Assembly: GCA_963726455.1 (NCBI GenBank)
Contig: CAVSCK010000004.1
Location: 1,824,001-1,888,000 of the forward strand
DNA from: an uncultured bacterium
GTDB lineage: Bacteria; Zixibacteria; MSB-5A5; CAIYYT01
DNA: 64,000 nt
Direction: 5' to 3'
The notes under the pieces are model-generated. The model worked only from the letters and a program-made list of their open reading frames with translations, was not told the origin of the DNA and searched no databases. This document shows, in pieces, positions 4,945 to 21,447 of the stretch. A program made the translations under genes and the position numbers. How positions within the stretch are numbered: position 1 is the first letter of the stretch; every line of letters starts with the position of its first letter.

Positions 4945-5616
4945 GTGAAGGCATCTGATTCGACAGCGCAAAACACGCGGGCGCAAATTCTTGAGGCGGC
5001 AGAGCATCTGTTTGTCCGCTTCGGGTTCGCCAAAGTCACAATGGAAGAGATCGCGTCTGGCGCGGGGCTCGGGAAGGCGTCTCTCTACTACTACTTTCCC
5101 ACCAAGGACGATCTCTTTCGCGCAGTGGTAGAACCAAAGCACCGGATATTCGAACAGCGCGTCCAACAAATTCTCAAGAACGGTCACAAACCTGCGGACC
5201 AGATAGAGGCGTATGTCGACGCCCGATTTGACTTCTTCAAGGAATTGCTCGAGCTGAACGTCATTGATATCCAGTCTATGACCAAGGGCTCACCTTCATT
5301 GAGCGCAATCTTTCAGCGGTATGCCCGTCAGGAATTGTTATGGCTGCGTAAGTTGTTTAAAGGTGGGCGAACCGGTGATGAATTCGGGTTTCCTCCAAAT
5401 GCCAAAGTGCCGGAAACGCTGCTGCACGTCATGCAAGGGTTGCGGCTTCGATTCGTGCGCGAACATCAGAACACACGTCCCGGGTTTGCGGCGTTCGCGC
5501 AACTCAGGCGTGAAGTGAGGTTCGTGACCAGAACGTTCGTTGTCGGTCTTGGCAATGGAAGCTTCGACGGCGGGCGGGAGCGGGGGGAGACTAACAGAGT
5601 CCAGGGAGATGTGTAT
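4945..5616 (+). CDS. TetR/AcrR-family transcriptional regulator; as given it runs in frame into the next gene with no stop
   Basis: HTH motif RAQILEAAEHLFVRFGF..VTMEEIA..AGLGKASLYYYFPTKDDLF. The 3' end is uncertain; an out-of-frame TAA lies at 5592-5594 after a G6 run. Confidence 0.85.
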
Positions 5617-6666
5617 ATGAAGACGCAAACAAAAATAGTCCTGCTACTAGTTCCGGTGCTGATCGTAGCCCTGGTCTATTTGCGGATTTCCGGCTCGGAA
5701 TCAGCCGGAACCGCACGCAAACAGGGGGCAATAATTGTAAAGGTCGATTTCCCCAGGCGGGAGACGATGACTCAAGTTCTACAATTGACCGGCGATGTCC
5801 TGCCGATTCAGCAGGCCATGGTCTATTCCCGTGTTCCGGGCACTCTGGAAAAGGTACTTGTCAACATGGGGGATCACGTTCGAGCCAATCAACTGCTCGC
5901 CAGTATTGACACGACCGAATTGGCTCAACAATACCGACAGGCACAGGCCACTTACGCCAATGATTCCATACTCTTTGAGCGGTCAAAGGCATTACTGCAA
6001 CAAAATCTGGCGACTCAGCAGGACTTTGACAATGCGGAAACCGCCTTTAAAGTCGCCCGATCGACCGCACAAACGGCAGAGACTCAACTGCAATATTCGC
6101 AGATCATGGCGCCGTTTTCTGGTTACGTGACCAGGCGATTTCTGGATCCGGGAGCTTTGGTCAATTCAAACAACCTGACGCTATTTACCGTGATGGATAT
6201 CGACTCCATCAAACTTCTCGTTAATGTGCTTGAAAAGGATGTTCCCCGAATCGGGGTCGGAACCAAGGCCGCCATCACCGTGGACGCTTACCCTGGGCGT
6301 GAATTCGTCGGCAGGATCGCCCGTATCGCGCAATCTCTTGATTTGTCGACGCGCACCATGCCCGTGGAAATTGATGTCCCGAACACGGATCTAATCTTGA
6401 AACCCGGCATGTTTGCCTCGGTGTCGTTAATCGTCAAGGAGCAGGACAATGCGCTCACAGTTCCGACCCAGGCCTTGCTGAAAGATACGACCGGCACTTT
6501 TGTTTTCGTCGCGAGTAAGGGTGTTGCGCGACGCACCACAGTTTCACCGGGGGTGGAACAGTCATCGCGCACCGAAATTCTCACCGGACTTGATGACAAA
6601 GACAGCGTAATCACGACGGGGCAGCAGTACATCCGGGACGGCGGGCCCATCAATATTCAGCCGTAG
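5617..6666 (+). CDS. RND efflux periplasmic adaptor (membrane fusion protein)
   Basis: Own SD (GGGAG) before the ATG at 5617, an N-terminal hydrophobic anchor, and motifs G.V..V.V..GD.V, I.APFSG.V, LKPGMFA and ILTGL...D.VIT.G. Confidence 0.9.
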   Translation: MKTQTKIVLLLVPVLIVALVYLRISGSESAGTARKQGAIIVKVDFPRRETMTQVLQLTGDVLPIQQAMVYSRVPGTLEKVLVNMGDHVRANQLLASIDTTELAQQYRQAQATYANDSILFERSKALLQQNLATQQDFDNAETAFKVARSTAQTAETQLQYSQIMAPFSGYVTRRFLDPGALVNSNNLTLFTVMDIDSIKLLVNVLEKDVPRIGVGTKAAITVDAYPGREFVGRIARIAQSLDLSTRTMPVEIDVPNTDLILKPGMFASVSLIVKEQDNALTVPTQALLKDTTGTFVFVASKGVARRTTVSPGVEQSSRTEILTGLDDKDSVITTGQQYIRDGGPINIQP

Positions 6667-6678
6667 GCGAAATCAAGT

Positions 6679-9600
6679 ATGTGGCTCACGCGACTGGCGC
6701 TCCGCTATCCTATTTCGACGTTTCTCATTGCGGTGACCATTCTCGTAATGGGAGTCGTCTCCTTCACCCAACTGCCCATTGATCTGCTTCCCAATATCAC
6801 GATTCCGGTGGTTTCGACGATCACATTCTATTCCGGCGCCAGCCCGCTCGACATGGAGCAGACGGTTACGGTTCCGACCGAACGCGCGGTTAGTTCCGTC
6901 AATGACGTCAGCTATGTTCAGTCCACGACACGCGAAGGAATCTCGCAGGTCCGGGTAAATTTCAATTGGGATGCCAATCTCGATGTCGGCCTGGTCGACA
7001 TTGTTCAGCGCGTAAACCGTATCCTTAACCAGATGCCCACCGGGGTATCGCAACCGGTAGTAGTGCGTTTCGACCTGACGACGATTCCCGTCTGCAACAT
7101 TGCCATTGCCGGAAACATGGATGAGCGCGATCTCTACGACTTGGCGCTGAATACCATCGAGCCGCAAATTGAGCACCTCAACGGCGTGGCTTCGGCGCAG
7201 GTATCTGGCGGACGTATCAGGGAAATCCACGTGCTGCTGGATCGTGATCGCATCCTGGCCATGCAACTTCCCGTGCAGTCGATCATCAACGCGGTTGCCA
7301 GTTCCAATCTGATCATTCCCTCAGGCGATCTCAAGACCGGACCGTTCGACTACTCACTCAAAACGGAGAGTCGCTTCAACGTGGTCAAACCGCTTGAAGA
7401 CGTTGTCATCAAGACGGTGAACGGAGTCCCGATCAGAATTCGTGATATCGGCAAGGTGGAAGACTCCTATCAGGACCAAACGGAAGTGGTTCGCATTAAC
7501 GGCGAGCCGGGCGTCAATCTCAGCGTGCAGAAGCTGGCAAATGCCAACACCATTCAGGTGGTTGACAACGTCTTGCATTCGCTGCCCAAGCTGGTCGGCG
7601 TCCCTGAGAATGTCAAAATGTCGCTGTCTTTCGACCAGTCGGTTTACATCAAACAAACTATCACCGGCCTTCAGCACGAGGCGTTGATCGGCGCTTTGCT
7701 GGCGATGCTCATTATTATGGCGTTTCTGCGGAATATCCGGGGCACCCTGATCATCATCGTAGCCATCCCGCTGTCGATCCTCATAGCGTTCATCTGGTTT
7801 AGATTCGGCAACGTTACGCTCAACATCATGACCTTTGGAGGTCTTGCGCTTGCCGTCGGTCGACTTGTGGATGACTCGATTGTCGAGCTGGAGGCGATTT
7901 CCCGGCATTACAACGAACGCCAGGAAGGGCTCAGCAAACTCCAGGCGACACTTGACGCCGCGCGGGAAGTTGCCTCGCCGATCTTCGTTTCCACGCTCAG
8001 TACGGTTATCGTGTTCCTGCCGATCATTTTCACAACCGGCCTCGCGAAACTCTTGTTCGTGCCTCTCGCCACCACGATTTCAGTAGCGCTCTTCGGTTCA
8101 TTCTTCATCTCGCGAACCGTGACGCCGTTGATGTGCCTGAATTTCCTCCCGCCGGAAAAGCATTTGAATCGTGAGTCCGTAAGGCCTTCCGATCGAATTC
8201 GCGTGGTGGCCCACGACGCCATCGAGTCACTCGATCACTGGTATGGCGTCCGCTTGCGCTGGGCGTTGAGCCATCGCAAACTCATCATCATTACAATTGT
8301 GGGAGCGAGTGTCTTGTCATTGGGCTTGTTCAAGTTCATTGGCACCGAATTCTTCCCCGATCAGGATGAAGGCCAGTTTGCCGTATCCGCAAAGCTCCCG
8401 GTCGGGACACGCACCGAGGTTACGGAGGCCCTGGTCGCTAAAATTGAAAACGTCCTGCGAGCCAATGTGCCCGAGATGCAAACCATGATCTCCGACATCG
8501 GCGTGCCTTCCGCGCGCAGTGGAACGCTGTTCAGCCGCAACACCGGCACGCACGCTGCCAATATCCGCGTGGCGCTCGTTCCCGCTAGCGAGCGAAAACG
8601 CTCGGAATTCGACATTGTGAAAGCAGTGCGACCGAAACTCATGACGATTCCGGGCGCCCAAATCTATGTCAGTCCTGGCGGCTTTCTGAGATTCCTGCTG
8701 AATTTCGGATCGTCCGCTCCGATCGATGTCGAGGTTCATGGATTTGACCTCGCGACCGGATCGGCGCTCTCCAAGAAAGTCGCCGCAATCGTTCGATCGG
8801 TTCCCGGAACTACTGATGTTCAGGTGAGCCGGGAAGATGATCTTCCAGAGCTTCGAATCAGGATCGATCGCGTGCGCGCTGGCGTTCTCGGCATCAGCGT
8901 GGGCGATATCGCGAACACGATCAACACGCTCATCGATGGCAGCGTCGCCTCGTTGTATACCGATCCCGACAATGGTAATCAATACAATATTCTCGTGCGC
9001 TTGAGCGAGGACTACCGATCTCATATCGAGGATCTGCAGAGCATAGTTCTCACGACCTCCAGCGGACAGCAGGTGCTGTTGGGAAACGTAGCGACCATTG
9101 AGCGCACGGCCTCGCCGGTAGAAATCGATCGCAAGTATCAGCAGCGACTGGTCGAAGTCACCGGCAACGTGCAGGGCCGCGACCTAGGAAGTGTTTCCAA
9201 AGACATTCAGAATCAATTGGATACTCTGTCGATCCCGCCCGGTTTTGAAGTCGTGCAGACCGGCAACGTCGAACAGCAACAGGAAACCTTTAAGGTTCTA
9301 CTGCTCGCTCTCCTTCTGGCAGTGCTCTTGGTGTATGTGGTGATGGCATCACAATTCCAGTCGCTCGTAGACCCGTTCATTATAATGTTTACCGTGCCGC
9401 TCGGCGTCGTGGGCGTGCTGTGGACACTATTCTTAACCAACACCACATTGTCGGTGACGTCTTTTCAGGGAGTCATCATCATGATCGGCATTGTAGTCAG
9501 TAACGGCGTGCTTCTGGTAGACTACACCAATCGACTGCGCCGCAGCGGCGTGCCGCTTCATGACGCGGTCCTGAGAGGCGGAATTACCCGACTGAAGCCC

Positions 9601-9810
9601 ATTATAATGACTACTCTGGCAACCGTCCTTGGCCTGATCCCAATGGCAATTGGACTGGGCGGCGAATCGACCCAGGCGCCGCTCGCCATCGCCGTAATCG
9701 GCGGCCTGACCATTTCCTCGGCACTGACCCTATTCTTCATTCCAGTGCTCTATACCATCTTCGAAGAGAAGTTCCGCCGCGAACTGAAAGCGCCGATCGA
9801 GCCCAACTGA
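6679..9810 (+). CDS. RND efflux permease (AcrB/AcrD/AcrF family)
   Basis: 1043 aa; LPIDLLP, GRLVDDSIV, VFLP, FFP.QDEG and RLKPIIMTT motifs in the two-halves RND layout. Confidence 0.95.
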   Translation: MWLTRLALRYPISTFLIAVTILVMGVVSFTQLPIDLLPNITIPVVSTITFYSGASPLDMEQTVTVPTERAVSSVNDVSYVQSTTREGISQVRVNFNWDANLDVGLVDIVQRVNRILNQMPTGVSQPVVVRFDLTTIPVCNIAIAGNMDERDLYDLALNTIEPQIEHLNGVASAQVSGGRIREIHVLLDRDRILAMQLPVQSIINAVASSNLIIPSGDLKTGPFDYSLKTESRFNVVKPLEDVVIKTVNGVPIRIRDIGKVEDSYQDQTEVVRINGEPGVNLSVQKLANANTIQVVDNVLHSLPKLVGVPENVKMSLSFDQSVYIKQTITGLQHEALIGALLAMLIIMAFLRNIRGTLIIIVAIPLSILIAFIWFRFGNVTLNIMTFGGLALAVGRLVDDSIVELEAISRHYNERQEGLSKLQATLDAAREVASPIFVSTLSTVIVFLPIIFTTGLAKLLFVPLATTISVALFGSFFISRTVTPLMCLNFLPPEKHLNRESVRPSDRIRVVAHDAIESLDHWYGVRLRWALSHRKLIIITIVGASVLSLGLFKFIGTEFFPDQDEGQFAVSAKLPVGTRTEVTEALVAKIENVLRANVPEMQTMISDIGVPSARSGTLFSRNTGTHAANIRVALVPASERKRSEFDIVKAVRPKLMTIPGAQIYVSPGGFLRFLLNFGSSAPIDVEVHGFDLATGSALSKKVAAIVRSVPGTTDVQVSREDDLPELRIRIDRVRAGVLGISVGDIANTINTLIDGSVASLYTDPDNGNQYNILVRLSEDYRSHIEDLQSIVLTTSSGQQVLLGNVATIERTASPVEIDRKYQQRLVEVTGNVQGRDLGSVSKDIQNQLDTLSIPPGFEVVQTGNVEQQQETFKVLLLALLLAVLLVYVVMASQFQSLVDPFIIMFTVPLGVVGVLWTLFLTNTTLSVTSFQGVIIMIGIVVSNGVLLVDYTNRLRRSGVPLHDAVLRGGITRLKPIIMTTLATVLGLIPMAIGLGGESTQAPLAIAVIGGLTISSALTLFFIPVLYTIFEEKFRRELKAPIEPN

Positions 9811-9908
9811 GGACCTGCGGTGCTCACACTTCGGTAAAGTGAACAGATTTTGTCCTGTTCCTGACCAGCGAATGTTCAATATTCATCCACTTTTATCCGT
9901 CATTTTTC

Positions 9909-9932
9909 ACGTAGATTCGAGTTAATCTACGT
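9909..9932. promoter_or_regulatory. Inverted repeat upstream of the cytochrome operon (candidate regulator site)
   Basis: ACGTAGATT-cgagtt-AATCTACGT in an AT-rich intergenic region. Confidence 0.4.
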
Positions 9933-10200
9933 ATCATTCTGGTTGTTTTTATTTGTCCAAAAACTCGACGGCAAGTCGATCGGAATTGCGAGAATTAATA
10001 TCCTCTATCGTGCCTGTAAGTCGTTGAAATTCAACTTTGAACTTAATTTTGGAGCTGTTACGTCCGATATGTTTCAGAGAGGAAATCTCCTCAGGCGATT
10101 TTTTTCTTTCGGTCGGTTTTGCACAAGTTGGGTAACATGGGCGTAAGAGATGCGTAGCGTAATCCCTGATTAGACTAGAACTTATTATCTGTAATGAGGA

Positions 10201-11127
10201 ATGATGCCTACAGTCGCAGCCAGAACAACGCCAAGGAACACCGCGGTGCATAAAGGTCGGCAGCAAAGATCAGCCGCTCGGACTATTGTGTACCTGGTCA
10301 CTTTCGCTGTCCTGATGGTGCTGTTCGTGCATGGTTTCTCTTACTACTTGACCCCCTATGCTGAGCGCGCGCGGCAACTTGCGTATCGACAACTTCGACC
10401 GGCCGGCGAGATGGGTCTCATTTACGGGATCATGGGCGCCTCAATGATGGTCATAATGCTGACCTACTCACTGCGCAAACGCATGAAATCCCTGGCCCGT
10501 TATGGTGCGCTGTCCGGCTGGCTGCATTTCCATATCTACCTTGGGATAGTCGGGCCATTATTTATTATTCTGCACACGTCATTCAAGGTTCAGGGGCTGG
10601 TTGCAGTCAGTTTCTGGTCGATGGTCGTGGTAGCGGCCAGCGGCTATTTCGGCAGATACCTCTACCTGCAGATTCCCCGTAACATCCAGGGAAACGTCCT
10701 AAGCTTGCAGGAGCTGGAGGAAAGTAATCGCGTCCTCAATGCCACATTAGTCGAGGAATATCAGCTCAGCCCGGAATTGATCACCAAGCTCGACAGTCTG
10801 GCCGATGTGCAGATTCCACAAACCGCCGGGCTATGGCACGCGCTGGGTTTGACCCTGGCAAGCGACGTACGCTGGTGGTTTACCAAGCGACGATTCAGAA
10901 AAGAATACGCACAATCTTTGGCTCTGCCCAGGAGCAAACAGCGGCAGTTGATGCGCGTGACTAGTGAACGCACCCAGCTTCGCCGCCGCATTGCTCTGTT
11001 GAGCCGAATACAGCAACTGTTCCACTACTGGTATGTGCTACACAAACCATTTGCGATCATCATGTACATTGTGATGTCGATACACATTACGGTCGCAGTC
11101 TGGACGGGGTATGCATGGGTTTTTTGA
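10201..11127 (+). CDS. Inner-membrane protein, ferric-reductase-like / cytochrome b-type
   Basis: About 5 hydrophobic segments with His at heme-b-like positions (WLHFHIYLG, ILHTSF, WYVLHKPF, SIHIT). First gene of the multiheme operon. Confidence 0.65.
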   Translation: MMPTVAARTTPRNTAVHKGRQQRSAARTIVYLVTFAVLMVLFVHGFSYYLTPYAERARQLAYRQLRPAGEMGLIYGIMGASMMVIMLTYSLRKRMKSLARYGALSGWLHFHIYLGIVGPLFIILHTSFKVQGLVAVSFWSMVVVAASGYFGRYLYLQIPRNIQGNVLSLQELEESNRVLNATLVEEYQLSPELITKLDSLADVQIPQTAGLWHALGLTLASDVRWWFTKRRFRKEYAQSLALPRSKQRQLMRVTSERTQLRRRIALLSRIQQLFHYWYVLHKPFAIIMYIVMSIHITVAVWTGYAWVF

Positions 11128-12854
11128 GGAGTTGGGCAGGAACTCACGCACATCTCACGGGATCGAAGCCACCTCTCGTCCTGCTGGTGGCAGTAGTACT
11201 ATTATGTGGAACAAACCGCAGCTTTGCCCAGCTTTCGCCGGGCCCGCTTTTTCGATCTCATGCGTCCCTCGAGGGCGTTGAGAACTGTCAGAAGTGTCAC
11301 GACCCAAATCAGGAGAAAGCACCTGGAAAGTGCCTCTCCTGCCATAAGGAGATTGCTGCAGAAATGGATCGCCATGACGGTCTGCACGGGAAGCAGAATT
11401 ATCGCGAATGCCGGGATTGTCATGTCGAGCATCAGGGTGTTGACGTTGAACTGGTCTACTGGAAAGACGGAATGCATAACTTCGATCACAATTTGACCGG
11501 ATATACACTGGAAGGCAAGCACGCCACCCTTAAGTGCCGTGATTGCCACGTAGCGAAGAATATCGCCGATAAAACAGCCCTGGCAGAGGCGGAGAAGGAT
11601 CTCACTAGGACGTTCCTTGGCCTGGATCCGCGTTGCCTGACTTGCCACGCCGACGAACATCATGGTCAGTTGGCTGCCACCTGCGCTAATTGCCACAATT
11701 ACTCCGCCTGGAAACCGGCCCCCACGTTCGATCACGCCAAGGCGAAATACGTCCTGACCGGCAAACATCTACAGGTAAAGTGTGATAAGTGTCATTTGCC
11801 GATCCCCGACAGCACTCAGGTAAACCAAAAGAATTATGCTCACTATACCGGTTTGAAATTTCAGAAGTGCATTGACTGCCACAAAGACGCCCATGACGGA
11901 CGGCTTGGCACTGATTGCGAAAAGTGCCACAATCCCGACGGCTGGGGAGTCACGCAACTCGCAAAATTCGATCATAGCAAGACGCGCTACCCGCTGCTGG
12001 GTCTGCACGGTCAGTTGACTTGTGACAAGTGCCACAAGCGGGGTGAACCTGTCAAGGGACTCCATTACCAGAAGTGTCTCGACTGCCATACTGATATTCA
12101 TCTGGGCGAATTCGCCGACCGCCCCCAGAAAGGTGCTTGCGAAGAATGCCATTCGGTGAAAGGGTTCAAGTTCACCAGCTTCACGCTGGAGATGCATCAA
12201 CAGACCAAGTACAAGTTGCAGGGCTCGCACCAGGCCGTCAGCTGTGACCTTTGCCATAGCAAGACGACGCCGGTCGCCAAGGCAACAGGCAAGAGGTTCA
12301 CTTTCAATTCGACCCGCTGCTCCGTATGTCATTCAGACGTTCATAAGAACGCCCTTGATAAATTCGTATCAGTGGACGGGTGTGAGCTGTGCCATGACGT
12401 CGCCGGTTGGCGTACCGTCAAGTTTGACCATAGCCGTACGAAATTCGCGCTTGAAGGGAAGCATATTGGCATTGTCTGCCGTGATTGCCACAACGGAAAA
12501 GATAAGAAAGTTCCGGTCGAGCAACTCAAATGGGCCGGCGTTTCACGCAAATGCGAAGACTGCCATAAGGACAACCATCACGATCAATTTTCTCAAGTCG
12601 CTAAGATGGCTGACTCAACTTCATCATATTGCGAGCGCTGCCATACCGTCAAGGCCTGGACCGGGGAAAAATTCAACCACAACAGAGATTCGCAATTCAA
12701 ACTGGAAGGCGCGCACCAGAAAGTTGCCTGCGCCGGTTGCCACAAGAAGGTGCAGGAGGGTGAAGTGACATTCGTGCGCTATAAGCCGCTGTCATCCGCC
12801 TGCAAGAGCTGTCATGCGGAAGGCACTCTCGAGGAAAAGGGGAAAACCTTATGA
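11115..12854 (+). CDS. Exported multiheme cytochrome c, 20 CxxCH
   Basis: 20 CxxCH counted by hand, a signal-like N-terminus, and repeating FDH..T.Y.L.G.H units. Overlaps both neighbouring genes. Confidence 0.92.
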   Translation: MGFLRSWAGTHAHLTGSKPPLVLLVAVVLLCGTNRSFAQLSPGPLFRSHASLEGVENCQKCHDPNQEKAPGKCLSCHKEIAAEMDRHDGLHGKQNYRECRDCHVEHQGVDVELVYWKDGMHNFDHNLTGYTLEGKHATLKCRDCHVAKNIADKTALAEAEKDLTRTFLGLDPRCLTCHADEHHGQLAATCANCHNYSAWKPAPTFDHAKAKYVLTGKHLQVKCDKCHLPIPDSTQVNQKNYAHYTGLKFQKCIDCHKDAHDGRLGTDCEKCHNPDGWGVTQLAKFDHSKTRYPLLGLHGQLTCDKCHKRGEPVKGLHYQKCLDCHTDIHLGEFADRPQKGACEECHSVKGFKFTSFTLEMHQQTKYKLQGSHQAVSCDLCHSKTTPVAKATGKRFTFNSTRCSVCHSDVHKNALDKFVSVDGCELCHDVAGWRTVKFDHSRTKFALEGKHIGIVCRDCHNGKDKKVPVEQLKWAGVSRKCEDCHKDNHHDQFSQVAKMADSTSSYCERCHTVKAWTGEKFNHNRDSQFKLEGAHQKVACAGCHKKVQEGEVTFVRYKPLSSACKSCHAEGTLEEKGKTL

Positions 12855-15800
12855 AGCGATTTACACTCGGTTTGATAGCGGTACTGATTCTGGTAGCGGG
12901 CGTAACTGTGGTAAGCCAGCAGCCGCCCAAGAACCCACACGGCCAGTTGAAATGGGATTGCCAGGTGTGCCATACGCCGCAATCGTGGTCCACGATGCGC
13001 GAGCCGATGACTTTCGATCATAACGAGACCGGATTCGCTCTTATCGGCAGGCACCGCACTGCGGCATGCAGCGGCTGCCACAAGGATTTACACTTTGCCA
13101 AAGTCGAACAGACCTGCGTGAAGTGTCATAACGATGTTCATCGCGGCCAGATGGGCGCCTCCTGCCAGGATTGCCATACTTCAGAAAACTGGCAGAACCG
13201 TCAGGACGTGTTCAATCTTCACTCTCAGAATGGATTCCTGCTGTCCGGAGTGCATGCCATCACCGATTGTGAGGCCTGCCACAAAAACGAACCGGGCAAA
13301 GAATTCTCTGCTGTCTCGACCGAGTGCGAAGCGTGCCATGCCTCAACTTATGCCGCTACCCAGAACCCCAATCACGCCCAGGCAGGGTTCCCATTGCATT
13401 GCGCCTCCTGCCACGAGGCGGAACTCATGGCCTGGCGAACTGTCAAGTTCGATCATTCCGCGACGTTCCCATTAATCGGCGGCCACAGCCGTGCGGTTTG
13501 CTCTGACTGCCACAAGGGTCAGCTTACGGCGGCACCAGTAAGGATTGCTTCAGTTGCCATGAAGCCAGTTTCGCCAGCGCCAACGATCCAAATCACGTGA
13601 AAGGCAGTTACGACCATGATTGCAAGGGCTGCCACACAATCCAGGCCTGGAAACCGGCAACCGTTGATCACAATGCCACTCGTTTTCCACTGACAGGCGC
13701 ACACGCGACTGTTTCCTGTGATAAGTGCCACACGAACGGATTTACCGGCACAACAACCGCCTGCTACGACTGTCATCAGGACAAGTTTACTTCGGTGGCA
13801 GACCCTAATCATGTCACGAACAATTTTAATCACGAATGCACTAAGTGCCACACGACAGCGGCATGGAAGCCCGCGACCTTCGACCACGCCGGAACTACTT
13901 TTCCGTTAACCGGTGCTCATGCGGCCGCGTCCTGCATCGCCTGTCACAGCTGCCGGCTATGTGAACACGCCGACCGCGTGCTATAGCTGCCACCAGGACA
14001 AGTTTACCTCAGTGACCGATCCGAACCACGTCACCGGGAATTTCGATCATAACTGCACGATTTGCCATTCAACCACTGCCTGGTCACCGGCAACTTTCGA
14101 TCACAGCAAGACCACCTTCCCGTTGACGGGAGCGCATCAGACGACCACTTGCGCCGCTTGTCACACTTCGGGTTACACTACAACGTCGACCGCTTGTTAC
14201 AGTTGCCATCAGGACAAATTCGTGGGCGCCAAGGATCCGGATCACGTGGCCGGCAATTTTGATCATGTATGTTCAAAATGCCATTCGACAACGGCATGGT
14301 CACCCGCGACTTTCGACCACAATCAAACGCAATTCCCACTGACCGGAAAACATGTGGGTGTCGCTTGTCAGTCCTGCCACACAACCGGCTACGTCAACAC
14401 TCCGACCGACTGCTATAGTTGCCACCAGCAGCAATATGTCAACGTGACTGATCCTAATCATGTCGCCAACAACTACAGCCACGACTGCACTAAATGCCAT
14501 TCTACGTCCGGCTGGGGCAACGATTCATTTGATCATAACGTTACGGCCTTCCCCTTAACAGGCGCTCACACTACGGTGACATGTGCCACTTGCCACACCA
14601 GCGGCTACTCAAATACACCGTCGGATTGCTATAGCTGCCACCAGACCAAATTCACCTCCGTGGCCGATCCAAACCATGTCACTAACAATTACAGCCACAC
14701 CTGCTCGACTTGTCACACGACGACTGACTGGGTCACCGTGACATTCGACCATAGTATCACTCCTTTTGCGTTGACCGGCGCACACGTGCCTTTGACCTGC
14801 TCCGCCTGTCACACCTCCGGCTTTGCCAATACGCCGAGCACCTGCTACGGATGTCATCAGAGTACGTTCACCGGAGTTACCGACCCGAACCACGTGTCCG
14901 GCAATTACAGCCATACCTGCACCCAGTGCCATACGACATCGGCCTGGAAACCGGCGACCTTCGATCATTCGGGTACACCTTTCCCGCTGACCGGGGCGCA
15001 TACAACAGCTTCCTGTACCGGATGTCATGCGAACGGTTTCGCCGGAACTCCAACCGCCTGTTATAGCTGTCACCAGGATAAATTCACATCAGTAGTCGAT
15101 CCCAACCACGTGACCGGAAACTTCGATCACACTTGCACGAAGTGCCATTCTACCTCGGTCTGGAAGCCGGCGACGTTCGATCATTCGCAGTCAGTCTTTC
15201 CTCTGACCGGAAAACATACGACCGTCACCTGCACGGCTTGCCACACGAACGGCTTTACATCGACTCCGACTGACTGCTATAGCTGTCACCAAACCGTGTA
15301 TACGTCGGCGACAAACCCGAATCACGTGCAAAACAACTTCGGCCAGGACTGCACAATTTGCCACAATACTACTGCCTGGCAGCCGTCAACTTTCAATCAC
15401 AGTTCCACGGCTTTCCCGTTGACCGGCGCACACGCCAATGTGACGTCTTGCGTAACCTGCCATGCTTCCGGTTACGTAAGTACTTCGACGGCCTGTTACT
15501 CGTGCCATGCGACCGACTTCACGGGAGCCACCGATCCAAACCACGTGACCAACAATTACGATCACAATTGCTCCAAGTGCCACAGCACCATATCGTGGGC
15601 CTCAGCGACGTTCGATCACAGTACCACCGGTTTTGCCCTGGTGGGTAAGCACATTGGGTTAACGTGTGTCTCCTGTCATTCGGCGGGCTATGTCGGCACT
15701 TCGCCGTTGTGCTATTCTTGTCACGAAACCGCGTTCACGGGCGCCACCAGTCCCAACCACGTGCAGAATCTCTTTGACCATGATTGCACTAAGTGCCATA

Positions 15801-17986
15801 ACGCCAACGGCTGGACTCCGTCGACCTTCAATCACGCGTCGACAACGTTCCCGCTGACCGGAGCACATACAAGTCTGACTTGTATCTCCTGCCACGCATC
15901 CGGATATGTGAACACTCCGAAGGATTGCTACTCCTGCCATCAAACGACATACACAGGGGTGACGGATCCCAATCATGTAGCGCTCAATTACAGTCATGAT
16001 TGCACGCAGTGTCACAGCACGACATCCTGGTCAGGGGCCACGTTCGATCACAGTACCACCGGCTTTGCCCTGACCGGCAAACATATCGGAGTCACGTGTC
16101 TCACCTGTCACACATCTGGCTACGCCGGAACCTCTCCGGCCTGCTACTCCTGCCACCAGACGGCGTTTACCGGTGCGGCAACTCCGAGCCACACTACGAA
16201 CAACTTCGATCACGACTGCACGATCTGCCATAACACGAGCGGCTGGACACCGTCCACCTTTAACCATGCGACGTCGCCGTTCCCGCTAACCGGTGCACAT
16301 ACAAGTTTGACTTGTATCTCCTGCCACACTACGGGGTATGTTAATACACCTACTGACTGCTATGCGTGTCACCAGACTAATTTCACCGGCACGACGAATC
16401 CTCCGCATGTCAGCAACAACTTCAGCCATACGTGCACGACTTGCCACACCACAACGGCCTGGTCACCGGCTACTTTCAATCATGCGACGACGACCTTCCC
16501 GCTAACCGGAGCGCACACAACGGCGACTTGCATTTCCTGCCACTCCGCCGGATATGTGAACACACCGACTGATTGCTATGCCTGCCACCAGACTAATTTC
16601 ACCGGCACGACGAATCCGCCGCATGTCAGCAATAATTTCAGCCATACTTGCACGACGTGCCATACGACGACGGCCTGGTCGCCGGCTACTTTCAATCATG
16701 CGACGACTTCCTTCCCGCTGACCGGTGCACACACAACGGCGACTTGTATCTCTTGCCACTCCGCCGGATATGTGAATACACCGACCGATTGTTACACCTG
16801 TCATCTAGCCAATTTCACCGGCACGACGAATCCGCCGCATGTCAGCAACAACTTCAGCCATACTTGCACGACCTGCCATAGTACAACCGCCTGGTCTCCG
16901 TCAACCTTCAATCACGCGACGACGGCGTTCCCATTGACGGGCGCACACGTCAGTCTGACCTGCATTTCCTGCCATGCATCCGGATACACTAGTACACCAA
17001 CTGATTGTTACGCTTGCCACCAGACTGACTTCACAGGTGCAACGAGTCCGGCGCATGTCAGCAACAATTTCAGCCATACCTGTACGACCTGCCATAGTAC
17101 AACCGCCTGGTCACCGTCAACCTTCAATCACGCGACGACGGCGTTCCCATTGACAGGCGCACATGTAAGTCTGACTTGTATTTCCTGCCATGCATCCGGA
17201 TACACAAGTACGCCGACTGATTGTTACTCTTGTCATCAGGCGGCCTTCACCGGAGTCACCGACCCAAATCACGTGACCAACAACTTCAGTCACACCTGTA
17301 CAACCTGTCACAGTACGACTGCCTGGTCTCCGGCCACGTTCAACCACAGCACCACAGTGTTCCCGCTTACCGGCGCGCATGTGAGTGCGACCTGTATTTC
17401 GTGTCATGCGTCGGGCTACGCCAATACACCGACGGCCTGCAATTCCTGCCACCACAGCGCTTTTACCGGCGCTACAAATCCAAACCATACGTCGGCCGGC
17501 TTCGCAACGACCTGTAACACGTGCCACACGACAACGGCGTGGGTGCCTTCAACCTGGAGCCATACTACTACCGGTTTTGCACTCACGGGCGGCCATGGCG
17601 GCTTGCAGTGCATTTCCTGCCATGCCAACGGCTACACGACGACCTTGCCTGCTTGTTACAGTTGCCATCAGGCCGACTACAACGGTACTACCAATCCTAA
17701 CCATGTGGCAGCTCAGTTTCCGACAACGTGCCAGAATTGTCATAGCACGACCAATTGGACATCGACGACCTGGAATCATGATTCACAGTACTTCCCGATA
17801 TATTCCGGCCATCACCAGGGACGCTGGGACGTTTGCTCAGACTGTCACACCAATGCGAGTAATTTCGCCGTATTCTCTTGCATAACGGGCTGCCATTCGC
17901 AGTCGAGCACGAACTCAGATCACAGCAGTGTAAACAACTACCAGTACAACAGCAATTCCTGCTATAGCTGTCACCCGCGTGGCTGA
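12851..17986 (+). CDS. Giant repetitive multiheme cytochrome c (about 1710 aa, 69 CxxCH + 1 CxxxCH), split by frameshifts near 13524 and 13948
   Basis: ORFs 12851-13600, 13597-13986 and 13913-17986 join into one continuous repeat pattern. After CSDCH-KGQ the shifted frame reads YGGTSKDCFSCH..NDPNHVKG; after CIACH the shifted frame reads AAGYVNTPTACYSCH. Only the first fragment has a signal peptide. Confidence 0.88.
13450..17780 (+). repeat. Intragenic tandem repeat, 216-nt (72-aa) unit, about 20 copies
   Basis: Unit: CxxCH-x11-H-x8-CxxCH-x4-W-x4-F[DN]H-x4-FPLTG[AK]H-x4-CxxCH-x2-G[YF]-x6. Confidence 0.9.
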
Positions 17987-18001
17987 GCACATTAAGGAGC
18001 T

Positions 18002-19639
18002 TTGACATACATGATGAAGCATCACTGGATTTCGCAGGGCAGATTGCTGATACTACTTGCATCGGTTGTGTTGCTGGTATGGGGGAGTCTGATTGCTAAT
18101 CCCAGCCGAACTCTGAAAGTCACCTACGTTTCTACGGAGTATGTCTATGTTGACGGCGGTACGGCCGATGGCTTGACTACTGGAACGCACCTGACGATTG
18201 TCCAGAAAGACTCTGTGCTCGCGGAACTTGAGGTCGCATTTTCGTCGGAGCGTTCGGCGGCCTGCCGCATCATAACGGCAGCGACCGAGATCAAGGCCGG
18301 CATGACCGTCACCTCTCCCGGTGCTCCGGATCAGGACACCACTGCCACGGCGAAGCCGGCGGACACAACTGCAGCCGTTGCCCAACCCGCTCCGGCGCCA
18401 GTCACTGTTCCGCGCGTGACCCCGACGATCACCGGCAGCGTCTCCGTTATCTTCGACCAATCAATTGACAACACCGCCTTCGGCAATAACCTCACGCAAT
18501 CAACCGGACGGCTCAACCTGCGAGGCCGGCACATCGGCGGCCATGACATAAGTTTCTCGATTCAGATGCGGGCGCGTCATGATCAGCGCAGCCGCCCGTT
18601 TCTGAACGACGTCGGTCGGAACGCCTGGGTGAACCGTTTGTATGAATTCTATGTGTCCTATGACGCCAAAGATGCTCCGGTCAATTTCTATGCCGGCCGC
18701 ATTCCAATTAGACGCGTCGGCAGCGTCGGCTTTGTCGACGGACTCCTGGTGGAGAATCGAATCGCGGGATCACTGAGATCCGGATTCTATGGCGGCGCGC
18801 AATCCAAGTGGCAGTACGCCGACCAAACTACGTCACTACAAAAATACGGCACGTACCTCAACTATTCGTCCGGCAGCTACGCCACGAACATGCTCGATCT
18901 CACGCTCGCCTTGTCCGGGGAATACCATTCGGCCACGGCCAGCCGTGAATTGGTATACTCACAGGGCCGATTCAACCGGGGCGACCGGTTCTATATCAGC
19001 GCGATCACCGAAGTAGATGTCAACCGTGGTTGGCGAATGCAGAAAGTTGGCCGCACATTTTCTTTGTCCAGCGTTTATCTGGACTCCCGGTTGAAATTGA
19101 CCAATCGCCTGGCAACCGGTTTGAGCTATGACAGCCGGGAGAATTACTGGACCTACGACATTCGCACTCTGCGCGACAGTCTGTTCGACAGCCATCTGCG
19201 CCAGGGCTTACGCGCCCGGGTCGATTACCGACTGTTCAACGGCTACTTCGCCTCCGCCAATGTCGGAACTAATCGCCGCAACGGCGACCCCGGTCAGAGC
19301 AATTCCTACGGGTTCAGTTTGAGCAAGGGCGCTTTTCTTTTCCGCCGATCAGACGTGAATCTGCAGTATTCGGCTTTCTCGGGCCTGGGACAGAGTGGCG
19401 ACAATTTCTCGGCGCGTCTCGGCAGTTCATTCCTCACGCGAAACTATGTGAGCGTCGGCTATGGATTCTATCGTTTCCGCTGGTCTTCAGCTGTACCGCT
19501 GCGTACGAATACATGGCTGGAATTGTCGACGCGGCTGGAATTTCTCAAGAACTTTTTCCTCTATGGTCTGTTTCAAGAGAATACGGGGGACGACATTAAA
19601 GGACATCGAGTGCAGTTGGAACTCGGTCATTCACTTTAA
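18002..19639 (+). CDS. Putative outer-membrane beta-barrel protein (porin of a porin-cytochrome complex); start may be the ATG at 18011
   Basis: Signal peptide, a small N-terminal beta domain, a Pro/Ala/Thr linker, then about 400 aa of alternating amphipathic strands rich in G/Y/F/R, ending RVQLELGHSL. AAGGAG SD at 17994-17999. Confidence 0.7.
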   Translation: MTYMMKHHWISQGRLLILLASVVLLVWGSLIANPSRTLKVTYVSTEYVYVDGGTADGLTTGTHLTIVQKDSVLAELEVAFSSERSAACRIITAATEIKAGMTVTSPGAPDQDTTATAKPADTTAAVAQPAPAPVTVPRVTPTITGSVSVIFDQSIDNTAFGNNLTQSTGRLNLRGRHIGGHDISFSIQMRARHDQRSRPFLNDVGRNAWVNRLYEFYVSYDAKDAPVNFYAGRIPIRRVGSVGFVDGLLVENRIAGSLRSGFYGGAQSKWQYADQTTSLQKYGTYLNYSSGSYATNMLDLTLALSGEYHSATASRELVYSQGRFNRGDRFYISAITEVDVNRGWRMQKVGRTFSLSSVYLDSRLKLTNRLATGLSYDSRENYWTYDIRTLRDSLFDSHLRQGLRARVDYRLFNGYFASANVGTNRRNGDPGQSNSYGFSLSKGAFLFRRSDVNLQYSAFSGLGQSGDNFSARLGSSFLTRNYVSVGYGFYRFRWSSAVPLRTNTWLELSTRLEFLKNFFLYGLFQENTGDDIKGHRVQLELGHSL

Positions 19640-19683
19640 CTGTCTTGTTCGCCGGTTAGCGGTGGACGAAGGATCGAAAAGTA

Positions 19684-21024
19684 ATGGAAAGAATTCTCAT
19701 CTGGGCTGCGGCCGGACTTATGATACTGGCGATTTTCTTGCCCTATTTCGTTCGCTTTCGCCGCGACCACCGCAAGATGCTGCACCAGAAACTGGAAGCT
19801 CAATCGCTGGGAATAGATCGCGCTAAAGCTCAATACCCGATGATTGACGCCAGATACTGCATCGGCTGCGGCTCCTGTGCCGCCGCTTGTCCGGAAGGCG
19901 ATGTCCTGGGCGTCGTGCACGGAACGGCAACAATCATTAACGGGGAAAGATGTATCGGCCACGGCGCTTGCGAGCGAGTCTGCCCGGTGGGCGCTCTTAA
20001 AGTCGGCTTAGGCGATATCTCGAGCCGTCCCGACATTCCGATCCTCTCTGACGACAACGAAACATCCGTCCCAGGAATGTATATCGCGGGAGAACTGAGC
20101 GGCCTTTCTCTGATCCGCAATGCCATCGATCAGGGCAAGAAGGTCGTAGACGCCATCGCCCAGAATCCCAAAAATTCCTCAAAGAACAGGATGTTTGATG
20201 TGATCATCGTGGGCGCCGGTCCGGCGGGGCTGAGTGCCGCCTTAACAGCTATTAAGAACCGTCTCAGCTATCTGGTGATAGATGAATTCGATGTCGGCGG
20301 GACGATTCTTCATTACCCGCATCGCAAACTGGTCATGACTCAGCCGGTGGAAATCCCTCCCTATGGCTGGCTAACCGAAGAAGAATACTCCAAGGAAACT
20401 CTGCTCGGCATCTGGACTGATATCGTTACCCAGTACGGTATCAAGGTCTGCGCCGGTCAGAAGGTCGCCCAGGTGGTCAAGGAAGACGGTGTATTTGAAG
20501 TACGTACGCAAAACGATACGTATACCTCAAGTTACGTGGTGTTGGCTCTGGGTCGCCGCGGTACGCCACGCAAGTTGGAAGTTGCGGGCGAGGAAATGCC
20601 CAAGGTAATGTATAAGCTGATCGATGCCCGCTCCTATACCAACATGGATTTACTGGTTGTGGGTGGTGGCGACAGCGCAATCGAAGCTGCTGTTGGACTC
20701 TCGCGCCAGCCGGGCAACCGCGTAAGTATCTCGTATCGCAAGAGCAGTTTCTTCCGAGTAAAGAAGAAAAACGAACTCGCCATTACTGAGCTGATTCGTA
20801 AGGGAACCGTCACCCCGATATGGGATTCTGCGGTTCAGGAAGTTAAGGCAAAAAGCGTAGCCCTGAAGACCAAGAACGGCCCCATCGAAATTGCGAATGA
20901 CTTTGTCTTCGTGCTCATTGGTGGCATTCCTCCCTTTGATATGCTCAAACAGATGGGTATCAAATTCGGTGGCGAGCCACACGCTGAAAAGACCCCTGTA
21001 AAGGAACTGGTCAAAGCCAGTTGA
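19684..21024 (+). CDS. Membrane-anchored 4Fe-4S dicluster / FAD-NAD(P)H oxidoreductase (TrxB/YpdA-like fold)
   Basis: N-terminal TM helix; CIGCGSC...CP and CIGHGAC...CP; FAD motif IVGAGPAG; NAD(P) motif VVGGGDSA followed by SYRK. No redox-active CxxC. Confidence 0.85.
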   Translation: MERILIWAAAGLMILAIFLPYFVRFRRDHRKMLHQKLEAQSLGIDRAKAQYPMIDARYCIGCGSCAAACPEGDVLGVVHGTATIINGERCIGHGACERVCPVGALKVGLGDISSRPDIPILSDDNETSVPGMYIAGELSGLSLIRNAIDQGKKVVDAIAQNPKNSSKNRMFDVIIVGAGPAGLSAALTAIKNRLSYLVIDEFDVGGTILHYPHRKLVMTQPVEIPPYGWLTEEEYSKETLLGIWTDIVTQYGIKVCAGQKVAQVVKEDGVFEVRTQNDTYTSSYVVLALGRRGTPRKLEVAGEEMPKVMYKLIDARSYTNMDLLVVGGGDSAIEAAVGLSRQPGNRVSISYRKSSFFRVKKKNELAITELIRKGTVTPIWDSAVQEVKAKSVALKTKNGPIEIANDFVFVLIGGIPPFDMLKQMGIKFGGEPHAEKTPVKELVKAS

Positions 21025-21232
21025 CTTCCATGTAGGCGAGCCGCCCCTATCCGGCGGTATCCTGCCGCCAGAATCGCTGTCAAGTTCCTTGCTTCGTCTA
21101 TAAATCCTGGGCGCAAGCGCAATCCAGACCAATCGACTCCCGTATTCTATCGCCTTTCCATTGGCGCCAAGGCAAACCGCAGTGCCGAATCGACAATTGG
21201 CCTTTCCAGCACGCCCCCAATCGAATTCCCGC

Positions 21233-21262
21233 TTGACTTTTCATTAAACAACTTGATACCTT
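21233..21262 (+). promoter_or_regulatory. Candidate sigma70 promoter for the HYR protein gene
   Basis: TTGACT-N18-TACCTT about 185 nt upstream of the ATG at 21448. Confidence 0.35.
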
Positions 21263-21447
21263 CGTCCACAGCTTAAGTACTGCCGTATGGTCTACTTGTT
21301 TGGGCAGGAATTGAAGTAGCAGAAAGGTCCATATTTATCCGTCGCGGTAGCTCCACGCATTCCGGGAGGAATAGCCGGGGCGAATCGCCGATCATCGGAT
21401 ATTGTCGTCGACAAAAACATCAAATCAAATTTTCAGTGGAGGTAAAC

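Follow-up and report, generated by a model that had tools for sequence, protein, structure and literature searches.

The window (the whole 64,000-nucleotide stretch of DNA analysed here) very probably encodes a secreted c-type cytochrome with about 70 low-spin bis-His hemes, the long wire of a PCC3-type porin–cytochrome cluster, labile in length over evolution and ancestrally encoded in one open frame. By their sequence, the three listed ORF pieces are one gene for a predicted protein of ~1,710 residues and 70 hemes, with a frame break on either side of the middle piece. The 70-heme protein is striking, yet it is not a new kind of protein. The sequence-only reading from which we started implied novelty, but He et al. 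had reported the cluster type, the sequence repeats, up to 85 hemes and the idea of a 'molecular wire' in 2017 (PMC5566968), and long, linear AlphaFold models of the PCC3 cytochrome were published in 2023 (Hoover et al., PMC9900912). The window therefore adds one well-annotated 70-heme member, and the discovery itself is not new. Added here are the sharp differences in heme number between near-identical relatives (45 versus 80, 79 versus 91) and a recurrent oxidoreductase partner, which bears on where the electrons come from.

One gene in three pieces

The ORF caller lists three ORFs, all on the + strand: 12851–13600 (249 aa), 13597–13986 (129 aa) and 13913–17986 (1357 aa). The first and third share one reading frame and the second is in another. 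In a three-frame scan of 12800–18000, the outer frame holds 63 CxxCH motifs (8 before break 1 and 55 after break 2) and the middle frame holds 6. Because the remaining frame contains only 1 CxxCH, the module pattern of heme motifs and invariant His is far beyond chance. A single CxxxCH (CITGCH) is found near the C-terminus, giving the bridged protein 69 CxxCH and 1 CxxxCH, or 70 heme-binding sites. With an X placed at each break the product has 1,712 positions, that is, ~1,710 residues; the counts given earlier for a protein of about 1710 aa after bridging two indels are thus reproduced.

Piece 1 (12851..13522, + strand) comprises the start codon, which overlaps the stop of the 20-heme gene (ATGA), a signal peptide, an irregular N-terminal region and 8 CxxCH. 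It aligns to the N-terminus of P0004, an intact homologue, and its listed ORF continues out of frame to 13600. Frame break 1 (13520..13524, + strand) lies in the linker after the eighth heme motif, where the sequence reads CAC AAG GGT/CAGCTTAC (the slash marks the break at ~13520–13524), with one base missing or two extra; the only run nearby is GGG. Piece 2 (13522..13950, + strand) is stop-free and consists of exactly two three-heme modules with 6 CxxCH, including CFSCH at 13546. This motif (13546–13560) lies inside the open middle frame (13507–13983) and is missing from all listed ORFs because the GTG start that was listed, at 13597, comes only after it; the frame map and the position of this start confirm the earlier remark that no listed ORF contains it. 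Frame break 2 (13948..13951, + strand), CAC AGC/T/GCC GGC at ~13948–13951, has one base extra and is located in the equivalent linker two modules past break 1, without a homopolymer. Piece 3 (13952..17986, + strand) carries 18 more three-heme modules and a conserved C-terminal cap (55 CxxCH and CITGCH in all) and runs to the stop; the cap aligns with P0004, P0002 and P0005.

Intact 70-heme proteins of 1,707–1,715 residues from other assemblies are collinear end to end with the bridged product. In a global alignment with the intact P0004 (1,715 aa, 70 CxxCH), 963 of 1,719 columns are identical and 11 are gap columns, and P0002 and P0005 align globally in the same way. Pieces 2 and 3 have no signal peptide or hydrophobic N-terminus (12-residue hydropathy maxima of 0.03 and 0.41, compared with 3.01 for piece 1), and both begin inside modules. 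The collinearity and the missing signal peptides bear out the proposal that the three ORFs are one gene. Of 11 loci from same-family genomes, 10 have the homologue in one uninterrupted frame with 52–58 hemes; among other species, 9 of 76 loci carry 66–91 hemes in one frame. Whatever the origin of the breaks, a single open frame is the ancestral and family state.

Three-heme modules and heme ligation

Of the 70 hemes of the bridged protein, 8 belong to the N-terminal region and 2 to the C-terminal one; between these regions lie 20 three-heme modules of ~72 residues, and the heme spacing across the 20 consecutive units is 25/32/15(16) residues. We aligned 66 four-module stretches, drawn from the window and 20 related loci. 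Each module has three invariant C-x-x-C-H motifs, an invariant P-x-H and a further invariant His at the F-[DN]-H position. The His of G-x-H is kept in each module as well, as are a Trp and a Leu; the Gly of G-x-H is conserved to at least 90% in the first of the four modules and is invariant in the other three. The 72-residue three-heme module with three extra invariant His, as first read from the letters, is clearly seen in this alignment. The whole giant cytochrome contains 161 His and only 5 Met, and no Met is invariant in the module; bis-His ligation of nearly all 70 hemes is thus arithmetically required, and together with the three invariant distal His per module this upholds the ligation scheme suggested at the outset.

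Pfam Cytochrome_C7 (PF14522) matches piece 3 with an E-value of 1.9e-51 (172.2 bits, against a cut-off of 24.8) and piece 1 with 46.7 bits, also above the cut-off; the short piece 2, at 22.2 bits, is just under it. An AlphaFold2 model of four modules, computed heme-free, is of middling confidence (pLDDT 72.7, pTM 0.44), and a fold search with it matched no solved fold. Searched against PDB sequences, a four-module profile gave one marginal match, to a photosynthetic reaction-centre cytochrome (E 0.001), and retrieved no solved Geobacter cytochrome chain at E ≤ 0.01.

Origin of the frame breaks

We lean towards consensus (assembly) errors as the origin of the breaks, because the middle segment is stop-free with all 70 heme motifs and all distal His intact, because the four neighbouring cluster genes are intact, and because one of the 5 AcrB-family genes of this genome (5 contigs, 3.64 Mb) is split mid-profile. 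Two independent errors within one 5-kb gene are not expected under a low, uniform error rate. An uncalibrated survey of split genes in the same genome yielded 25 strict candidates, and in it neither homopolymers nor k-mers point to sequencing error. Of the sampled words, 8% occur in the one public run that was found, whose contigs end at 13236, short of both breaks. Among 5.8 billion proteins none above 63% identity spans the middle segment, and two exact-word scans of JGI metagenomes returned nothing. A less probable origin, but one of real weight, is that both indels are real and that the gene is a freshly inactivated pseudogene, leaving a 249-residue, 8-heme secreted stub and a conduit without its long wire. 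The assembly as given does hold both breaks, neither is in a long homopolymer (GGG at break 1, none at break 2), the survey gave no clear sign of error-type breaks, and repeat-rich genes of the family are split elsewhere too, for example 14+47 in locus L028 and 21+21 in L069. However, there is no other lesion in 5.1 kb, and once a gene has been frameshifted one would expect more motif-destroying substitutions than further indels. Split-looking cytochrome pieces are also commoner in the loci of one long-read-style project (7 of 12) than in others (16 of 60), a crude comparison made with a noisy detector on related genomes that are not independent.

We regard each of the remaining two explanations as very improbable. 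Programmed ribosomal frameshifting (−1, then +1) would read through the breaks: in its favour, the second shift undoes the first, and what lies between them is exactly two complete modules. Homologues, however, are single-frame at both places (10 of 11 same-family loci, P0004, P0002 and P0005), break 1 has no X XXY YYZ slippery heptamer and break 2 has neither a stop nor an obvious hungry codon. To our knowledge, a double recoding event within one gene has no precedent. The ORF caller's own output would instead be taken at face value if these were three separate genes, for cytochromes of 8, 5 and 56 hemes. Attachment of c-type hemes takes place outside the cytoplasm and requires a signal peptide, which pieces 2 and 3 lack; moreover, the listed starts fall inside modules, one heme motif is orphaned, and no relative has a three-gene layout at these places. 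Assembly error thus remains our preferred origin, with the caution that repeat genes of the 70-heme family are often frame-broken in assemblies.

Heme number and module turnover

In related genomes the giant gene is uninterrupted and encodes 16 to 91 hemes. When the heme count of the largest cytochrome frame is placed on a tree of the membrane protein encoded in the same cluster (58 rows), it requires at least 41 changes over 54 rows, and near-identical neighbours carry 45/80/49/47, 79/91 and 70/46/40 hemes. Modules 16–21 of the bridged protein (16142..17437, + strand) are those most recently duplicated or homogenised, 16–19 being most alike. At the DNA level, modules 16 and 17 are 90% identical, 18 and 19 are 87% identical, and identities among 16–19 are otherwise 75–77%; module 20 is 72–73% identical to 18 and 19, modules 13 and 15 are 74% identical, and most other pairs range from 49 to 70%. 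Tandem Repeats Finder reports periods of 216 and 432 at 16216–17433, with 81% and 76% matches. These results support a chain length that is set by the number of modules and changes fast in evolution through module gain and loss. The 16–91-heme relatives and the sharp differences between near-identical clusters agree with the original suggestion that repeat number sets the length.

The family is very large: the four-module profile retrieves 6,158 cluster representatives at E ≤ 0.001, of which 1,552 reach E ≤ 1e-30, and the relatives span at least eight phylum-level labels. If the wire reading is true, no covalent biological electron conductor would be longer than these single polypeptides with 50–100 hemes.

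A PCC3-type gene cluster

By sequence, the genes at 10201–21024 match a PCC3-type porin–cytochrome operon in which the giant gene is the long, variable-length cytochrome, an assignment made on the published description of PCC3, whose type clusters are those of Sideroxydans (Slit_0867–0870 and Slit_1446–1449) and Leptothrix. The same cluster occurs in Proteobacteria-labelled loci (L039, L055, L060 and L087), with 30–37% identity in the membrane protein.

The inner-membrane protein (10201..11127, + strand; 308 aa) is, from its motifs and hydrophobic spans, a probable diheme b-type transmembrane electron carrier. Its sequence contains W-x3-H-x13-H twice, at residues 107 and 277, as well as SGYFG at 147, and its hydrophobic spans number about five; the published PCC3 membrane protein, ~300 aa long, has five helices, of which the fourth bears SGxxG and the third and fifth each bear W-x3-H-x13-H (PMC5566968). 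Residues H111, H125, H281, H295, W277, S147, G148 and G151 are invariant in 44 homologues. The protein has 1,675 homologues at E ≤ 1e-5 and no match in Pfam or NCBIfam. The next gene (11115..12854, + strand) encodes a cytochrome c of 579 aa with 20 CxxCH, the counterpart of the PCC3 'periplasmic' multiheme cytochrome, for which a median of 21 hemes, and 21–27 in Gallionellaceae, has been published (PMC5566968). It matches Pfam Cytochrome_C7 (9.4e-22) and Cytochrom_c3_2 and has a hydrophobic N-terminus; in most related loci this gene, with 17–23 hemes, sits just before the giant gene. The long PCC3 cytochrome is described as repetitive and Thr/Ser/Ala/Gly-rich, with 22–39 residues per heme (PMC5566968), and published heme numbers are 10–35 in Gallionellaceae and 63 and 85 elsewhere (PMC5566968, PMC9900912). 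The giant cytochrome has its 20 repeat modules, 24.5 residues per heme and a composition of 17.8% T, 9.7% S, 8.8% A and 6.0% G.

Downstream of the giant gene lies an outer-membrane barrel protein (18002..19639, + strand; 545 aa), comprising a signal helix, a small β domain, a disordered linker and a modelled 22-strand barrel; He et al. 2017 include a β-barrel porin gene in PCC3 (PMC5566968). The AlphaFold2 model, made with 40 homologues, has a pLDDT of 84.7, with strands from 142 to 544. Foldseek returned 265 PDB matches at E ≤ 0.001, and among the matches listed 43 of 43 are outer-membrane barrels. The best VIA-align Z-scores, 19.7–17 over residues 139–545, are to 22-strand TonB-dependent transporter barrels. 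No Pfam or NCBIfam match was found for this protein.

The fifth conserved gene of the cluster, identified by Pfam matches and conservation, encodes a predicted membrane-anchored Fe-S/FAD-NAD(P) oxidoreductase (19684..21024, + strand; 446 aa). Its N-terminal hydrophobic helix is followed by basic residues, Fer4 families match at 53–105 and Pyr_redox_3 at 174–428 (5.9e-44), and in both cluster motifs every Cys and His is invariant but one, the second Cys of motif one, which is conserved only in most sequences. Across 83 unique loci, the membrane protein is found in 65, the barrel in 64, the oxidoreductase in 64, and all three together in 47. The genome carries cytochrome c assembly genes and can thus mature such cytochromes; 21 of its open frames have at least 4 CxxCH.

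Proposed function and location

Gene content and published predictions lead us to think that the cluster transports electrons out of the cell. The two b-hemes in the 308-residue membrane protein would take electrons across the inner membrane to the 20-heme cytochrome, from which they would move down the 70-heme chain, whose hemes would lie close together; the 22-strand barrel may give this chain, or a partner of it, passage through the outer membrane. MtrA measures about 100 Å for 10 hemes, as quoted in PMC5566968, and if similarly extended, 70 hemes would span some tens of nanometres. Flow could be outward, reducing an outside acceptor, or inward, for uptake. In the cited PCC3 literature, no cluster is reported as biochemically tested and no family member as purified, located or knocked out; two PCC3 clusters of Sideroxydans ES-1 are down-regulated on Fe(II) (PMC8788666).

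The giant cytochrome has a Sec-type signal peptide, and sequence inspection and Pfam revealed no lipobox and no type IX sorting domain. Its extracellular location is predicted, following the published location prediction for the long PCC3 cytochrome (PMC5566968). It is possible, though unlikely, that the protein remains periplasmic and acts chiefly as an electron store, or capacitor, instead of an outward wire. Geobacter GSU1996, GSU0592 and GSU2210 reside in the periplasm and are regarded as capacitors (PMC10138318), such a role has been suggested for PCC3 and giant cytochromes (PMC9900912, PMC7399161, PMC11495043), no outer-membrane export signal is seen here, and in Chloroflexota relatives the cytochromes are present although no barrel gene was detected. 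Against a periplasmic store, the 22-strand barrel gene adjoins the long cytochrome in 64 of 83 loci, the separate 20-heme cytochrome already suits the periplasmic role, and the published prediction is extracellular.

More speculatively, the cluster might be a five-part, quinone-independent conduit, with the oxidoreductase on the long cytoplasmic loop of the membrane protein as a split NADPH-oxidase-like unit; we consider this doubtful. NAD(P)H electrons would then pass through two b-hemes and ~90 c-hemes to the outside of the cell, or in reverse for uptake. The idea derives from the oxidoreductase gene, which accompanies the cluster in 64 of the 83 loci at any of three positions, from two database proteins in which a relative of the membrane protein is joined to Fe-S domains, and from He et al., who likened the His pattern of that protein to ferric-reductase/NOX domains (PMC5566968).

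Comparison with known systems

PCC3 clusters have been published from Alpha-, Beta- and Gammaproteobacteria, and the word stem 'Ignavibacteri-', a label borne by relatives found here, is absent from the main text of PMC5566968. That main text makes no mention of an Fe-S/FAD oxidoreductase gene, whereas the window cluster has one, and the giant gene of the window is frame-broken, unlike the published description. Giant secreted cytochromes with up to 112 CxxCH have been found in wastewater Bacteroidota (mostly Saprospiraceae) and Acidobacteriota, with electron transfer or storage suggested (PMC11495043). In that source they are known by motif counts, and their likeness to the window family is the high CxxCH number; the relatives of the window gene include L051, a Saprospiraceae locus with 67 hemes.

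MtrCAB of Shewanella and MtoAB/PioAB, like the cluster proposed here, combine a cytochrome chain through an outer-membrane barrel with an outside cytochrome, but use ten-heme units and a different inner-membrane partner (PMC5566968, PMC9900912), and their barrels have 24–32 predicted strands, compared with 22 in our model. Membership of the MtrA/DmsE decaheme family was rejected: the DmsE-family model (NCBIfam TIGR03508) scores 61.2 bits for the 20-heme protein and 40.4 bits for piece 3, far under the curated cut-off of 192.

The Geobacter 'nanowires of hemes' GSU1996 and GSU0592 (12 hemes) and GSU2210 (27 hemes) are also single polypeptides of tandem three-heme, ~10-kDa domains, and the solved 12-heme structure has its hemes in a linear array (PMC10138318). 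Pfam Cytochrome_C7, which matches the modules of the window, is shared ground. However, they have 12–27 hemes rather than 70, are periplasmic and lie outside any porin cluster, and contain one His-Met heme per domain (PMC10138318), a feature that the 5 Met of the window protein do not provide. Finally, OmcS, OmcE and OmcZ hold a continuous chain of close bis-His hemes for long-range transfer, as proposed for the window protein, but their filaments polymerise from 4–8-heme subunits (PMC10138318, PMC9900912), whereas the window protein would be one covalent polypeptide whose length is fixed by its gene.

Frame structure and heme modules of the giant cytochrome

The giant cytochrome gene (12851–17986) is represented in the ORF list by three pieces on one strand (12851–13600, 13597–13986 and 13913–17986). 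Three-frame translation of positions 13400–14100 reveals that the reading frame of cytochrome-like sequence changes twice. Between 12800 and 18000, 63 CxxCH motifs are found in the outer frame (8 upstream of the first switch and 55 downstream of the second), six in the middle frame and one in the third. The middle-frame motifs include CFSCH at 13546, ahead of the GTG at which the second ORF is listed to begin. The single CxxxCH motif, CITGCH, is located near the C-terminus of the protein. The frame-wise counts bear out the sequence-only reading, which had described three pieces, two frame switches, 69 CxxCH motifs with one CxxxCH, and a CFSCH absent from the listed ORFs. Break 1 maps to about 13520–13524, within CACAAGGGT/CAGCTTAC, and break 2 to about 13948–13951, within CACAGC/T/GCCGGC. 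Both fall in the 10–11-residue linker that joins the third heme of one module to the first heme of the following one, and the distance between the breaks is exactly two modules.

Bridging the pieces with an X at each break yields a product of 1,712 positions that contains all 69 + 1 motifs. The first eight motifs are irregularly spaced; spacing then follows 25, 32 and 15 (or 16) residues over 20 three-heme units, after which a C-terminal cap carries two further heme motifs. We aligned 66 four-module stretches, seven from the window and 59 from 20 related loci. Invariant in each module are three C-x-x-C-H motifs, P-x-H, one further His, one Trp and one Leu, as well as the His of G-x-H. The giant protein contains 161 His, five Met and 17.8% Thr, with 24.5 residues per heme. 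Because six invariant His are available for every three hemes and Met is almost missing, these residue counts suggest that all of its hemes are bis-His ligated.

A single gene behind three ORFs

Intact relatives of the same size provide a direct comparison. In a global alignment with P0004, a database protein of 1,715 residues, the bridged product is identical in 963 of 1,719 columns, with 11 gap columns, and the alignment runs from the signal peptide to the C-terminal CHPRG. Two further database proteins, P0002 (1,708 residues) and P0005 (1,707 residues), also align with it, and all three have 70 CxxCH motifs apiece. A hydrophobic N-terminus is present on piece 1 and absent from pieces 2 and 3. 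The global alignments to these relatives confirm that one gene underlies the three ORFs.

Origin of the frame breaks

We moderately favour assembly error as the source of both breaks. The shifted segment extends over 143 codons without a stop, every heme motif and distal His of the giant protein is kept, and the partner genes of the cluster are intact. The genome, in five contigs, has another gene that is split mid-profile, one of its five AcrB-family genes (contig C4, 1284129–1287138; two adjacent open frames covering profile positions 2–346 and 356–1020, the other four copies being whole). Split-looking cytochrome pieces occur at 7 of 12 loci from one long-read-style project versus 16 of 60 others, a comparison made with a noisy signal-peptide detector on related genomes. 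However, neither break lies at a long homopolymer, and a paralogue-based survey of 2,111 adjacent same-strand frame pairs returned 25 strict (50 loose) candidates, uncalibrated and without an error signature. In the 25 overlap windows, k-mer enrichment was unconvincing (the best 6-mer occurred 9 times against 2.4 expected, with about 2,000 tested), and homopolymers of at least four bases showed no excess at the break intervals over the genome.

That the breaks are real and recent, and the giant gene a pseudogene, is a serious possibility to which we give rather less than an even chance. A search of public reads turned up a single run of DNA, with a share of 0.08, and none of RNA; the five short contigs from that run (13039–13236, 14926–14968 and three between 16484 and 16922) cover neither break. 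Searching JGI metagenome contigs for two exact words from the window (24/25 bases) gave no match, and the best-matching database protein reaches 63% identity over the shifted segment. Bypass of the breaks by programmed frameshifting is very unlikely, since relatives remain in a single frame across both breaks, neither of which has a slippery site.

Elsewhere in the window, a 573-residue ORF (4945–6666), directly upstream of an AcrB gene (6679–9810), joins a TetR N-terminal DNA-binding domain (residues 15–61) to an HlyD/CusB membrane-fusion domain (residues 289–491); it may be a fusion, or reflect a lost stop or a frame break. Two same-strand ORFs (23267–24952 and 24648–25604) overlap by about 300 bases, the second carrying a type IX secretion sorting domain at its end; they may be parts of a single surface-protein gene with a further frame break. 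On the reverse strand, a 1,964-residue protein (27206–33100) has Pfam matches in its C-terminal part only (Por_Secre_tail and CHU_C, both of type IX sorting, and FlgD Ig-like).

A widespread family with labile module number

The giant protein belongs to an already known, widespread family. Matches were found in 23 of 41 genomes searched (the source genome and 40 relatives), including 16 of 20 further same-family genomes. No match came from two genomes of the same genus (G001 and G003), and a third (G002) gave a fragment at a contig end only. Ten of the 11 same-family loci that we cut out encode a single-frame homologue of 52–58 hemes behind a 20-heme gene; in the remaining one it is split 14 + 47. 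A search across GTDB, with one genome per species, located 528 stretches coding for relatives. The 76 loci retained bear the labels Ignavibacteria, Zixibacteria, Acidobacteria, Calditrichia, Gemmatimonadota, Bacteroidota, Chloroflexota and Proteobacteria, and their largest single open frames encode 66, 67, 67, 69, 70, 71, 79, 80 and 91 hemes. Among the best 120 database proteins (length up to 2,000 residues), 45 have at least 60 CxxCH motifs, 19 at least 70 and 11 exactly 70. With E ≤ 0.001 as the limit, a four-module profile retrieved 6,158 cluster representatives, of which 1,552 reach E ≤ 1e-30. This survey, which the sequence-only reading had proposed, recovered many homologues of variable heme number, with single frames of up to 91 hemes at the loci retained. 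The 91 CxxCH motifs are in an intact 2,290-residue open frame (L102, a related locus, 7917–14786); the top match of the profile, database protein P0241, has 94 in 2,321 residues.

Module number is very labile across the family. We built a quick maximum-likelihood tree from 58 rows of membrane-protein sequence. Scored over 54 rows, heme number in the largest cytochrome frame changes on this tree at least 41 times, a figure inflated by counts from frame-broken genes. Near-identical membrane proteins accompany single open frames of 45, 80, 49 and 47 hemes, of 79 and 91, and of 70, 46 and 40. Within the window, modules 16 and 17 share 90% DNA identity and modules 18 and 19 share 87%; most other module pairs share 49–70%. 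The heme counts of intact members are mostly 3k+1 (52, 55, 58, 67, 70, 73, 76, 79 and 91), with exceptions that include 66, 69, 71, 75 and 80. The pattern fits constant ends combined with a variable number of three-heme modules.

The source genome is rich in multiheme cytochromes, with 21 open frames of at least four CxxCH motifs. Outside the window it has cytochrome pairs of 17 + 11 and 17 + 16 hemes (contig C4, 1805418–1810090 and 1506320–1509601, and others).

Composition of the gene cluster

The cluster runs from a 308-residue membrane protein (10201–11127) through a 20-heme cytochrome (11115–12854) and the giant gene to a 545-residue barrel protein (18002–19639). The membrane protein, which has no match in Pfam or NCBIfam, contains two W-x3-H-x13-H motifs flanking SGYFG, and about five hydrophobic spans; all 44 homologues compared keep its four His, the Trp and SGxxG unchanged. 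An atlas look-up, which provides leads only, placed it with clusters auto-named pyridine nucleotide-disulfide oxidoreductase (0.93) and 'ferric reductase like' (0.88). AlphaFold2 models the 545-residue protein (pLDDT 84.7) as a small β-domain, a disordered linker and a 22-strand barrel. The model matches outer-membrane barrels in the PDB, the best being 22-strand TonB-dependent transporters (Z 17–19.7). A promoter and terminator scan of 9700–21500 yielded fewer sites than shuffled sequences.

Four loci labelled Chloroflexota/Anaerolineae (L077, L083, L089 and L090) encode the membrane protein with cytochromes of 17 and 39–50 hemes, and tblastn finds neither barrel nor oxidoreductase there. Such an absence would be consistent with an envelope that has no outer membrane.

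A membrane-anchored oxidoreductase with two Fe–S motifs and an FAD/NAD(P) fold is encoded at 19684–21024. Its gene is found with the cluster at 64 of the 83 unique loci (L020–L108), in one of three placements: it follows the barrel, separates the membrane protein from the 20-heme gene, or lies upstream in divergent orientation. In the second cluster motif an invariant His replaces a Cys (C-x-x-H-x-x-C...C). In two database proteins, Fe–S domains are fused to a protein distantly related to the membrane protein. Structure prediction of a complex of membrane protein and oxidoreductase (with two hemes and two Fe–S clusters) was uninformative, at a score of 0.01 against a mark of 0.32.

Proposed electron path

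The membrane protein would hold two b-hemes, from which electrons would pass to the 20-heme cytochrome and on to the 70-heme chain, with passage through the outer-membrane barrel. Scaled from ten-heme MtrA, which measures about 100 Å (PMC5566968), an extended 70-heme chain would reach some tens of nanometres. The source genome has cytochrome c assembly genes. A four-module AlphaFold model built without hemes (pLDDT 72.7, pTM 0.44) yields no geometry. It had no Foldseek match in the PDB and none at Z ≥ 2 among 48,161 chains in VIA-align, as expected without hemes and uninformative on the fold; the module sequence profile gave one marginal PDB match.

Comparison with published PCC3 clusters

The cluster has the composition of PCC3, the porin-cytochrome gene cluster type defined by He et al. 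in 2017 (PMC5566968). The PCC3 membrane protein has about 300 residues, five helices, SGxxG and two W-x3-H-x13-H motifs, and was compared to ferric-reductase domains with two b-hemes. The periplasmic cytochrome has a median of 21 hemes. The 'extracellular' cytochrome, repeat-built and rich in Thr, Ser, Ala and Gly, has a median of 34 (up to 63 and 85), with 22–39 residues per heme, and was read as a conductive molecular wire (PMC5566968). The nanowire put forward in the sequence-only reading is thus a hypothesis that the literature already contains.

Hoover et al. described 10–35 hemes in Gallionellaceae, with long, mostly linear AlphaFold2 models, and argued that such a chain could outreach and outpace a wire of small cytochromes (PMC9900912). 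In Sideroxydans, expression of both PCC3 clusters is lowered on Fe(II) (PMC8788666). Arbour et al. described Ignavibacteria cytochromes that carry 40 and 33 hemes, a porin preceded by a 24 + 49-heme pair, and motif numbers that vary among homologues (PMC7399161); a wastewater study reported up to 112 motifs (PMC11495043). Clusters described in a peat preprint (10.64898/2026.05.27.727921) carry 8–13 hemes and differ from that of the window. The main text of PMC5566968 mentions no Fe–S/FAD oxidoreductase partner for PCC3; FAD, ferredoxin, 4Fe-4S and pyridine nucleotide do not appear in it, and NADH appears in another context only. To this published picture, the present analysis adds the lability of module number and the oxidoreductase gene that accompanies the cluster.
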